64,000 bases of DNA, taken from the NCBI GenBank assembly GCA_020137815.1, contig CM035351.1, positions 1,550,001-1,614,000 of the forward strand. Direction: 5' to 3'. The notes below the pieces were generated by a model. It was given only the letters and a program-made list of their open reading frames with translations, was not told the origin of the DNA and did no database searches. Position 1 is the stretch's first letter. Every line of letters starts with the position of its first letter. Made by a program: the position numbers and the translations under genes. The DNA is from Hormiphora californensis (Eukaryota > Animalia > Ctenophora). Below, piece by piece: positions 40,143 to 44,719 of the stretch.

Positions 40143-43100
40143 ATGCGATATAAACTAGCAACTGCTCTGGGTCTACTCTCTACGATTATATACTTTGATG
40201 TGTGTTCAGACTACTACCACTCGATTGTCGAATACACAGATAAGGTTATCTGGCAACTCGGTCCAGAGGAAATCCTGATTCGAAATTACGACCGCCAATT
40301 TCACTACCCGACTCCTGTTACTAAAAGTGTTTTCTTGGGATTTAACGGAAACATTGATGTTATATTAGAAGGTAAGATTTAGTAACATACTGCACATCTC
40401 TAGTAGGCCGGATTAGCTTGTAATCCAGACTCTTGAAATTGTTACAATGTGGGAAAGAAACAAGGGGGGATATTTTTGTTAGACTTACCAAGGATACGGT
40501 TTTTCAGGGCCCAAGTTTTTAAATGGTATTTCTTCTGAGGTACTGTCCGGTGAAGAGGATCTGCCCTCAATTAATTCGGTAAACCAGTTAAAGTCTACAT
40601 TCAACTACTTTTTCAAACGGCAAACGGCTGCAGAGAGATCTGTTGGGGATCAGCCGGCATGGGAAGAAATTGTTCGACTGATAGAGGCTTTCCCAGAGAA
40701 GAGTTATTTTATTGGTGGTAATGCCGCCCTTATTGCTCGAACTATGAGTAAAAACGATGTTCAGGTATGTGGTTGGCCCAGTCTAAGGGCTTAAAAATGT
40801 ACGGTCCAGATTAGAGGGACGTATTTACATAATTCTATGCATATTACGATAAATGATACTAGGTTAAACTCTTCGTACCGTCTCCTCGATATACACGGCA
40901 CGACCATCGAACGGTTCAAATAATAGGAGAGGTTACCAGCCCGTGCCATCCAACATTCTCCTTTTTCAGATCAAGTTGGCCATTCCCTCGGGACCAGAAC
41001 TTGTCTCACAGCTAGAAGAACACGGACTAACCGTAATGGAATCCTGCCTGAAAAGTAGGGACGAGTTTCACGTTATCCTAGAGGTGAACTTGAGTCCTAA
41101 CTCCAATCCTTGTTTACTGTTTGTTTGTAATTGTTGTGTTATATCCAGTTCCCAGCTAATCCTTCTCTTTAACAGTATGGTGTTGGGTCTGTATACGAAG
41201 GGCACACCAGTACCAGAGCGAACAGATTCATTTTCTCTCGGGATGTGGCTAACAGTGAAATGGATGCCATCAACTGCTTTACTAAAGGTACACTACTATA
41301 CAGTCACTCACACTCTGATCAGTGAGGGTTCGGCAGACCAACACTACACAAGGCTGTACAAGCTGTTCATGTTGTTTAGAGGGGACATCATTGAGGACAG
41401 GGTGTAACATTATCAAACTATTCAGGTGATTTGAGTGATGTAGATGTAGTGGTTATTGCAGGATTTCATATGTTGGAAAACCAGCCGGAATCAACAAAGC
41501 AACAGGTAAAGTATTATGTACTATGTAGTGATAGTTGAATGATGCTGTACTTATAAGTTAGTCACTAGTGTTGTTATTTACTCTGCTCTGTATGATAACA
41601 GGTGTTAGGAAGTGTTCAAGAGAAGGTTCTGGAGCACCGTTTAGTTCACCTGGAGTTGGCCAGTATGACTAGAGCTGACTTCCTCTTAGAACTCTTCAAT
41701 TCGCTTGCTGTCAGGTACAAAAAATTAATCACTACTCCCTACCTATTTACAAGCTGTGTCCGTCGTCTTCGGTCGGGCGGGAGAACTAATAAACGTCTTA
41801 CATCTTATTATCCCAGGGTCCACTCATTGGGGCTGAACGAGGCAGAGCTTGCTTTTCTCTCTGAGGTACTGGGTGGTCCACCTGTTACGGAATCTGTAGA
41901 AAGTGTGAAGGAGGCCCTGGTGTTCCTACTGTCCAAAGCAACTGAAGGTCAACTATCCAGGATTCATTTTCACTGTCTAACATTCCACGTTATAGTAGAG
42001 AAATCAGGTAATATGTTGGTTTTATTTGTCTTCTCACTCCCCTTCAATTTCTTTATTTCACTCTCTATTGTTTATCTCGCGCCCTCTCTCTCACCGGTGG
42101 GCGGACTCTAGTGCTAACGGACTCTATATCTAAACCCAAGGAGGACTCTATATCTAACCCTAACCTTTACACTAACCCCTCACCTCGAACCCAAATAACA
42201 GCCCTAACACTTCTAAACGAGTGGCGAGTATAGAGGCACAGCAAACTCTCGTTTCCGGCCTCACGGCCGAAATCTCGAGTTCGCTTTTCGTGATTTTAGC
42301 ACTAGAGTCCGCTCACCCTCTCTCACCATATCTCCCCTTTCTCTCCCCTCCATTCCTTGATCATCAGGTAAATGGAAGAATGGTGCCACTGCTGTTGCTA
42401 TTGGTACACTAACAGCTGCAAAGTATGCCTGTGACACCCCCAACCTGAAACCAGATAATCACGAACTAAGGTGGACAGGAGCTGGTTCTAAACCTGTCGT
42501 TAGGTAGGTGGTGGGAGCTGGTTCTAAACCTGTCGTTAGGTAGGTGGTGGGAGCTGGTTCTAAACCTGTCGTTAGGTAGGTGGTGGGAGCTAGTTCTAAA
42601 CCTGTCGTTAGGTAGGTGGTGGGAGCTGGTTCTAAACCTGTCGTTAGGTATGTGTTGAGAGCTGGTTCTAAACCTGTCGTTAGGTAGGTGGTGGGAGCTG
42701 GTTCTAAACCTGTCGTTAGGTATGTGGTGGGAGCTGGTTCTAAACCTGTCGTTAGGTATGTGGTGGGAGCTGGTTCTAAACCTGTCGTTAGGTAGGTGGT
42801 GGGAGCTAGTTCTAAACCTGTCGTTAGGTAGGTGGTGGGAGCTGGTTCTAAACCTGTCGTTAGGTAGGTGGTGGGAGCTAGTTCTAAACCTGTCGTTAGG
42901 TAGGTGGTGGGAGCTGGTTCTAAACCTGTCGTTAGGTATGTGGTGGGAGCTGGTTCTAAACCTGTCGTTAGGTAGGTGGTGGGAGCTGGTTCTAAACCTG
43001 TCGTTAGGTAGGTGGTGGGAGCTGGTTCTAAACCTGTCGTTAGGTAGGTGGTGGGAGCTGGTTCTAAACCTGTCGTTAGGTATGTGGTGGGAGCTGGTTC

Positions 43101-44719
43101 TAAACCTGTCGTTAGGTAGGTGGTGGGAGCTGGTTCTAAACCTGTCGTTAGGTAGGTGGTGGGAGCTGGTTCTAAACCTGTCGTTAGGTAGGTGGTGGGA
43201 GCTAGTTCTAAACCTGTCGTTAGGTATGTGGTGGGAGCTGGTTCTAAACCTGTCGTTAGGTAGGTGGTGGGAGCTGGTTCTAAACCTGTCGTTAGGTAGG
43301 TGGTGGGAGCTAGTTCTAAACCTGTCGTTAGGTAGGTGGTGGGAGCTGGTTCTAAACCTGTCGTTAGGTAGGTGGTGGGAGCTGGTTCTAAACCTGTCGT
43401 TAGGTAGGTGGTGGGAGCTGGTTCTAAACCTGTCGTTAGGTATGTGGTGGGAGCTGGTTCTAAACCTGTCGTTAGGTAGGTGGTGGGAGCTAGTTCTAAA
43501 CCTGTCGTTAGGTATGTGGTGGGAGCTGGTTCTAAACCTGTCGTTAGGTAGGTGGTGGGAGCTGGTTCTAAACCTGTCGTTAGGTATGTGGTGGGAGCTA
43601 GTTCTAAACCTGTCGTTAGGTAGGTGGTGGGAGCTAGTTCTAAACCTGTCGTTAGGTAGGTGGTGGGAGCTGGTTCTAAACCTGTCGTTAGGTAGGTGGT
43701 GGGAGCTGGTTCTAAACCTGTCGTTAGGTAGGTGGTGGGAGCTGGTTCTAAACCTGTCGTTAGGTAGGTGGACAGGAGCTGGTTCTAAACCTGTCGTTAG
43801 GTAGGTGGTGGGAGCTGGTTCTAAACCTGTCGTTAGGTAGGTGGTGGGAGCTAGTTCTAAACCTGTCGTTAGGTAGGTGGTGGGAGCTGGTTCTAAACCT
43901 GTCGTTAGGTATGTGGTGGGAGCTGGTTCTAAACCTGTCGTTAGGTAGGTGGTGGGAGCTAGTTCTAAACCTGTCGTTAGGTATGTGGTGGGAGCTGGTT
44001 CTAAACCTGTCGTTAGGTATGTGGTGGGAGCTGGTTCTAAACCTGTCGTTAGGTAGGTGGTGGGAGCTGGTTCTAAACCTGTCGTTAGGTATGTGTTGGG
44101 AGCTAGTTCTAAACCTGTCGTTAGGTATGTGGTGGGAGCTGGTTCTAAACCTGTCGTTAGGTAGGTGGTGGGAGCTGGTTCTAAACCTGTCGTTAGGTAT
44201 GTGGTGGGAGCTGGTTCTAAACCTGTCGTTAGGTAGGTGGTGGGAGCTAGTTCTAAACCTGTCGTTAGGTAGGTGGTGGGAGCTAGTTCTAAACCTGTCG
44301 TTAGGTAGGTGGTGGGAGCTGGTTCTAAACCTGTCGTTAGGTAGGTGGTGGGAGCTGGTTCTAAACCTGTCGTTAGGTAGGTGGTGGGAGCTGGTTCTAA
44401 ACCTGTCGTTAGGTAGGTGGTGGGAGCTGGTTCTAAACCTGTCGTTAGGTAGGTGGTGGGAGGTAATTAGTTTTTAGGTATGTGTTGGGAGATAATATTT
44501 CCCCGGCAACCAATTTTCATCTCGAGGTAATAAATGAAGTTAAAATATTGATATTCCCAGCTGGGTGGTCCATAACATAACAACTATTTCAGTAAGAAAA
44601 GGCCAGATGGAATAACAATACATGTGTCACCTGTATTAGTATGTAAACGACCTTTAAAGACAGTCGGGTTAGGGGACTCTATCAGCGCCACTGGGCTCCT
44701 TTACACCTCAATTATCTGA
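40143..44719 (+). CDS. ADPGK: ADP-dependent glucokinase, copy 2, complete (9 exons; last exon 44593-44719)
   Basis: Same motifs as copy 1 plus final exon [38 protein letters not shown]. Confidence 0.92.
42096..42318. mobile_element. Intronic MITE, same family as 2390-2969; absent from ADPGK copy 1
   Basis: TIR GGTGGGCGGACTCTAGTGCTAA / TTAGCACTAGAGTCCGCTCACC. Confidence 0.8.
42478..44462 (+). repeat. 36-bp splice-donor tandem array (~55 units) in ADPGK intron 8
   Basis: Same unit as 10873-11623; true donor at 42504. Confidence 0.95.

Follow-up and report, generated by a model that had tools for sequence, protein, structure and literature searches.

The ADPGK gene and the minisatellite at its exon 8 boundary

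The window analysed here is a stretch of 64,000 nucleotides from the ctenophore Hormiphora californensis (assembly GCA_020137815.1, contig CM035351.1, positions 1,550,001 to 1,614,000 of the forward strand). It contains a gene, named copy B, that is predicted from its matches to PF04587 (ADP_PFK_GK) to encode an ADP-dependent glucokinase (ADPGK), and a second copy of the same gene, named copy A. In copy B, a 36-base minisatellite of 55 units extends across the boundary between exon 8 and intron 8, each unit holding a copy of the exon 8 splice donor. We consider it likely that the first of these donors serves most transcripts and that the other 54 are silent or of minor use. Positions are those of the window, and features lie on its plus strand unless stated otherwise.

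Copy B was modelled as nine exons with GT..AG introns; with intron 8 taken to run from the donor after 42503 to the acceptor before 44593, the frame stays open for 452 residues. Exons 1 to 7 lie at 40143-40371, 40508-40764, 40970-41083, 41176-41287, 41426-41505, 41602-41714, and 41817-42007, exon 8, which ends in AG and in phase 2, at 42368..42503, and the coding part of exon 9, with a conserved C-terminal GLGD motif, at 44593..44718. PF04587 matched six of the nine exons in profile order, three of them exceeding the curated cut-off on their own. The matches fell on exons 2, 4, 5, and 7, on exon 8 (profile positions 330-364, E=0.0039, alone below the family cut-off), and on exon 9 (positions 398-430, E=4.9e-12), the last two exons being also aligned with orthologues. 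The model places the array in intron 8, which measures 2089 bases, and introns 1 to 6, six of the gene's seven other introns, range from 92 to 205 bases.

The closest full-length relative found, P0002, shares 55% identity with the copy B product over 454 columns and belongs to a cluster that includes the ADPGK of Bolinopsis microptera; P0003, the best-scoring other relative of P0002, shows 37% identity. P0002 matches the structure 5CCF of the PDB (E=8.5e-64), and through this orthologue the GLGD motif was aligned with 5CCF. The likely active-site aspartate of the human enzyme is at position 481 (PMC3683018), and it may correspond to the GLGD motif of exon 9. A homologue search made with exon 8 returned none of 64 candidates at E<=10. 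Of 17 listed sequencing runs, five were compared with the window, the DNA runs X2 and X5 and the RNA or presumed RNA runs X9, X15, and X17, the latter as assembled contigs. Introns 5 and 6 are missing from the RNA contigs, in agreement with the model, and at intron 4 there is a loose end that matches exon 4; the gene is thus transcribed and spliced as modelled at introns 4 to 6.

Tandem Repeats Finder reported the minisatellite at 42478..44462 with a period of 36, 55.1 copies, 97% matches, and a score of 3730, and cutting the array at a fixed motif gave 55 units. The first-pass annotation of this DNA had described about 55 in-frame units of 36 nucleotides, each made of the exon end plus the donor, and our analysis agrees with this description, its division into 25 and 11 bases being ours shifted by one base. 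The unit consists of the last 26 bases of exon 8 and the first 10 bases of intron 8. The tandem unit therefore spans the exon-intron boundary, and its exon part aligns with orthologues. The nine-exon frame and the orthologue would both put this boundary after 42503, and not elsewhere.

Three positions of the unit vary. Position 30 is G in 40/55 units, where it makes an in-frame TAG, and T in the 15 others (TAT, open), which bears out the stop/no-stop base of the first-pass annotation; position 7 is G in 42/55 and A in 13/55. A third variant, T at position 34 in units 5 and 45, was not part of that annotation, nor was the second ADPGK copy with the same array. Four of the 54 complete units fall outside the four common types (two with T at position 34, one with A at position 1, and one of 37 bases). 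No association was detected between positions 7 and 30 (Fisher p=0.73; p=1.0 with both arrays pooled; low power), in line with the earlier view that the two sites are shuffled independently. Runs tests of low power gave no significant clustering of variants along the array, and runs of open units never exceed two to three units, as long as shuffling predicts. No higher-order periodicity appeared in the variant order (longest repeated block of six units, p=0.75), nor any variant block common to the arrays of copies A and B beyond expectation (longest of five units, p=0.91). The array with its variants is far beyond chance. One further plus-strand frame and two minus-strand frames are also open across it, with no sign that they belong to a gene.

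Unit 36 (43738..43774) is the one with 37 bases. As had been proposed from the sequence, its end repeats the exon bases found directly ahead of unit 1, and its extra base puts donors 37 to 55 out of phase with exon 9. Units 37-44 agree with units 2-9 in 7/8 states (3/8 and 1/8 at offsets 0 and 2), a hint that the start of the array was duplicated again, with the 37-base unit as its mark; this offset was picked post hoc and is not relied on. The motif AG/GTA(G or T)GT, the slash marking the splice boundary, is kept in 55/55 units. Both donor types score 7/9 against the consensus MAG/GURAGU (taken from PMC1557585) and the other donors of the gene score 6-8/9, so that the description of both variants as good donors holds.

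Contigs of runs X2 and X5, from two DNA samples and two studies, cover the unit and the unit-to-unit sequence, and the array is thus present in these samples as well. In X2, two array contigs had depths of 1992 and 1900 as compared with 68-80 for the flank, about 24-29 fold; contig depth is not a copy number, and we take this value only to mean many copies. Summed depth differed between X2 and X5 and depends on contig fragmentation, and it was left unused for copy number. One loose end in X5 resembles what we take to be a short-read adapter. Since no single record spans the array, the length of 55 units and the order of the variants rest on the window, and an assembly artefact in the array itself, or in its length and variants, could be suspected all the more in a window with noisy or fold-back parts and with a copy A that may be an uncollapsed haplotype. 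However, unit-to-unit sequence recurs in two samples from two studies, array contigs of X2 have excess depth, and the variants sit at three fixed positions instead of being scattered at random. We regard such an artefact as extremely unlikely. Between the two ADPGK copies, noisy low-complexity sequence lies at 19500-24600 and an inverted duplication, with arms 91-96% alike around a 32-base array, at 26104-32823; these two parts may represent an assembly error.

Donor choice and the fate of transcripts from later donors

The first unit is likely the authentic exon end, judging by the reading frame and the orthologue. Donor 1 (42504..42509), which is of the G type, was the only one to yield the 452-residue enzyme among the donors computed. 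Its product is collinear with P0002 through the exon 8-9 junction in an alignment that took in 15 of 101 proteins. In 13 of the 14 other aligned ADPGKs, 13-18 extra residues stand just before this junction, a loop that the copy B enzyme (42460-42503) and P0002 are without.

A close parallel is human F7, whose intron 7 holds a length-polymorphic 37-bp variable number tandem repeat of 5-9 units with 4 exon bases each (Borensztajn et al. 2006, PMC1557585). The same paper reports that the most upstream of the identical donors was the one used in three cell lines, whatever the number of units between 1 and 12, and that it also prevailed over later copies whose strengthening stopped short of a perfect match. 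By analogy, splicing of ADPGK would take the most upstream donor, and occasional use of donor 2 or 3 would give a single truncated product without the C-terminal active-site motif.

The consequences of later donors follow from the state of unit 1. In copy B this unit is of the G (stop) type, and translation of a transcript reading through it would end at the stop codon 42505-42507, which lies ahead of all later donors. Seven of the 55 donors were computed, donor 1 included, and donors 2-4, 36, 37, and 55 each led to a product of 411 residues, which would be without the C-terminal active-site motif. Because the stop in unit 1 precedes every later donor, open units are never translated in copy B and the order of the units is never read. 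The stop/no-stop base is therefore not a switch in copy B, and its state is likely that of a passenger. The distance from the stop to the last junction would be 32 bases with donor 2 and 68 bases with donor 3. For decay of such transcripts, a rule of 50-55 bases applies in vertebrates, and our literature search found nothing establishing it for ctenophores. In copy A, an open unit 1 precedes a unit 2 of the stop type. Donor 2 of copy A would add 12 residues in frame, and this insert would fall in the loop that is longer by 13-18 residues in most other animals.

Several points weigh against the use of donor 1 by most transcripts. No RNA record fell on 44400-44760 in runs X9 and X15, and none over exon 8 in X9, X15, and X17, an absence that is no evidence in itself. 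The first-donor rule comes from mammalian cells. Apart from intron 8, the gene has mostly short introns, and with the last donors the intron to be removed would measure only 115-144 bases. A spliceosome working by intron definition, the model presented in PMC6142364, might prefer such donors. IFI6 and CBS, cited in PMC1557585, constitutively use the next two donors as well. The synonymous bias between the two copies in exons 1 to 8 (see below) could predate the array, and the join of array and unique intron in run X2, on which the history given below draws, was deduced while the letters themselves were not seen.

Some of these points would favour competition in earnest between the donors, array length setting the share of truncated or degraded ADPGK transcripts. 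All units keep a 7/9 donor, on a par with most of the gene's real donors, short introns could give an advantage to donors lying close to the acceptor, extra copies are used in IFI6 and CBS (PMC1557585), and haplotypes are likely to differ in the ends of the array and probably in its length. Yet F7 with up to 12 units, or with later donors strengthened to a score of 91, was described as undergoing no shift in splicing (PMC1557585), no RNA evidence speaks for competition, and in copy B all outcomes collapse to one 411-residue product, so that variant order cannot grade anything. We consider it unlikely that the later donors compete in this way. The first-pass annotation had envisaged dozens of competing donors, most leading to premature stops, and this view finds no backing: the RNA contigs do not cover intron 8, and the stop in unit 1 makes the product of the later donors uniform.

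An acceptor directly followed by a donor (YAG/GT) is present as TAG/GT at every unit, and the array could conceivably be harmless by removing itself, the RNA made from a later donor being spliced again, stepwise, into the normal message. With AG as the last two bases of exon 8, any later donor (54/54) would leave in the RNA a piece that begins with GT and ends with AG, and removal of this piece would restore the normal exon 8-9 junction. Three to five units amount to 108-180 bases, within the intron range of the gene, the bases before the unit AG include 6/11 pyrimidines, a count inside the range of 5-11 seen at the eight real acceptors, and duplicated AG/GT sites are reported to be able to yield working introns (PMC3265369, PMC3087553). 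However, all eight real acceptors are CAG while that of the unit is TAG, the branch-point-like motif is only 13 bases from the AG, no RNA intermediate was seen, and first-donor choice explains the data without any second splicing. Such self-removal is, in our opinion, decidedly improbable. The same low standing applies to the broader proposal that the array is tolerated through its combined acceptor-donor units, removed stepwise or in blocks of 3-5 units with the stop of unit 1 disposing of escaped transcripts, and not through first-donor scanning. We thus favour predominant use of donor 1, to which the synonymous bias in the coding sequence, exon 9 included, lends indirect support, and the array is probably neutral.

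Second gene copy, proposed history of the array and neighbouring elements

The region 8714-11623 matches 40113-43228 at 96-97% and contains copy A. Exons 1 to 8 of this copy (8744..10898) have an open frame and differ from copy B at 21/1232 coding bases, and its array (10873..11623) was resolved by Tandem Repeats Finder and a unit list into 21 units, 11 of the stop type and 10 open. Unit 21 is interrupted by the start of a long terminal repeat (LTR)-type retrotransposon coding region with zinc knuckle, protease, reverse transcriptase, RNase H, and integrase (11625..18382), the pol region of which changes frame near 15431-15498. Neither exon 9 of copy A nor a second LTR of this element was found in the window. 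The number of units thus differs between copy B (55) and copy A (21, cut by the insertion), and the 3' edge likely differs in X2, in each case with no spanning records.

Sixteen of the 21 codons that differ between the copies are synonymous (p=1e-6 at an assumed 25%), as are three of the four positions of exon 9 at which run X2 differs from copy B (p=0.05, weak), and for this reason the ADPGK coding sequence looks conserved. Contigs of X5 mix A- and B-type bases, the A type being present at 2/22, 0/4, 2/2, and 5/9 differing sites in four records, where sites at contig ends may be unlisted. Because X5 mixes both types and X2 itself departs from copy B at four positions of exon 9, the divergence between A and B is of allelic size. 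With noisy and fold-back sequence lying between the copies, copy A may be an uncollapsed haplotype, hence an allele, or a recent duplicate.

Downstream of the array, intron 8 continues with 115 bases of unique sequence (44478..44592), likely the ancestral intron. The first ten bases of this sequence, a T-type donor, are those of units 5 and 45, and they are followed by GGAG, which also makes up the first four bases of each unit. Between the exon part of the last unit and this unique intron lies a 29-base spacer (44449..44477), which is likely absent in X2, as judged from record lengths and mismatch counts. Records 6 and 7 of X2 fit a unit joined directly to 44478 (length 45, three mismatches, end at 44467), and the four unaligned bases of record 7 bring its overlap to 30 bases, the value to be expected between adjacent contigs. 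A normal unit in this place would produce another pattern. From these lengths and mismatch counts we infer a direct join of a unit to 44478 in X2. Such a join would imply an ancestral intron of 115 bases with a T-type donor, a founding duplication at GGAG, and a stop that arose afterwards; the open (T) variant is then probably the ancestral intron start, and the stop type derived.

The array would thus have been founded by a 36-base duplication between the GGAG in exon 8 and the GGAG at intron bases 11-14, in an intron that was 115 bases long and had a T-type donor. It would then have grown by slippage, unequal exchange, and conversion, through which three point variants also spread, T to G at position 34, T to G at position 30 (the stop), and G to A at position 7. 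Between the intron start and the sequence just ahead of unit 1, the variants can be ranked as successive steps, which makes AGGTGG a likely exchange point for the 37-base unit and not the founding seam; one exchange there with the sequence just before unit 1 would have produced that unit. The GGTGG microhomology invoked in the first-pass annotation accordingly accounts for the 37-base unit, while the founding seam would be better explained by GGAG.

The stop type looks derived and yet forms the majority in both arrays (40/55 and 11/21), and open runs never go above two to three units, as would be expected if the stop variant had spread under selection as a safety catch against translation running on through the in-frame repeat. 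However, five of the 108 single changes to an ancestral-type unit make a stop, so that, with three variable sites, one stop would arise with a chance of about 13%, from which selection is indistinguishable. In addition, the run lengths match shuffling, one stop near the front of the array would do, and the stop change also perfects a short internal repeat and raises the likeness to the bases before unit 1. Selection for a safety catch is consequently very unlikely, and the stop is better seen as the passenger described above.

Other elements were recorded around the two copies. In intron 7 of copy B, about 220-250 bases at 42067-42318 that are absent from copy A belong to a very high-copy dispersed repeat, with a summed X5 depth of several hundred thousand as compared with a few hundred nearby and with relatives at 2600-2969. 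Two different elements stand at nearly the same spot upstream of the copies: an endonuclease-reverse transcriptase open frame of 1098 codons of the long interspersed nuclear element type before copy B (36580-39873), and before copy A (about 6610-7772) a 1.1-kb element with a 329-codon frame, a 98% copy of which lies at 57011-58307. A 4-base microsatellite (44765-44947) starts about 45 bases past the ADPGK stop. THOC1-like exons follow at 45097-45584, within 400 bases of ADPGK (weak PF11957 match, E=0.00085, below cut-off), and behind them minus-strand frames of 245 and 402 codons (45841-46575 and 47134-48339) match no Pfam family at the curated cut-off. On the minus strand at 62862-64000, an array of 22 copies of 52 bases runs off the window end; its unit holds GAG/GTGAG and an open frame, with no convincing Pfam match, and it is possibly a second donor-spanning minisatellite whose exon would lie outside the window.

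Related arrays and significance

Arrays of this kind are already known from human genes and from lancelets. As in F7, the first unit of the ADPGK array lies over the exon-intron boundary, the unit length is nearly equal, and identical donors are repeated in the intron. ADPGK differs in having 55 units with 26 exon bases each, in frame and with a stop/no-stop base, in a short-intron animal, and the use of the first donor was shown in F7, while in ADPGK it is a prediction. The minisatellites of human IFI6 (6-16) intron 2, CBS intron 13, LMNB2, and PDGF, with 10-26 reiterated donors (cited in PMC1557585), likewise place reiterated donors behind the authentic one. In IFI6 and CBS the two nearest copies are also used, whereas such use in ADPGK copy B would hit the stop.

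In lancelets, the "mirage" minisatellites of Adh3 and of the globins BflGb6 and BflGb9 are described as tandem copies of exon-intron boundaries that differ in length between haplotypes, with units of 10-72 bp in Adh3 and with 3-6 units in BflGb6 (PMC3087553). According to the same report, they leave regular splicing undisturbed, and their AG/GT signals are viewed as a route to intron gain. They resemble the ADPGK array as exon-intron boundary repeats of a marine invertebrate. They belong to another phylum, the ADPGK copy number is above that of the globin cases, and the lancelet arrays have the support of reverse transcription PCR, while the ADPGK array is known from DNA sequence. The Rogers model derives the birth of introns from tandem duplication of AG/GT (PMC3265369). 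The ADPGK unit boundary is also AG/GT, and a run of units is thus formally a removable GT..AG segment, although here the duplication copies an existing donor and adds no new exon. Recursive splice sites have been described for very long introns (PMC13196383), whereas ADPGK intron 8 has only 2089 bases. No link between recursive splicing and minisatellites was found in the portions of the literature available to our search. No ctenophore report of an intronic minisatellite at a splice site was found either, most subscription papers and supplements being outside the scope of the search. What is new may be the lineage and the AG/GT ends of the units, which would allow re-splicing.

The ADPGK array extends exon-boundary minisatellites to a ctenophore and keeps a record of the birth and diversification of such an array. 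An intron that probably grew from about 115 to 2089 bases, with 55 equal donors, would be a natural reporter with which first-donor choice can be tested in a short-intron, early-branching animal. If re-splicing proved true, it would explain the wide tolerance of such arrays, and if the units were indeed removed stepwise, the locus would constitute a natural, polymorphic test of donor choice outside bilaterians.

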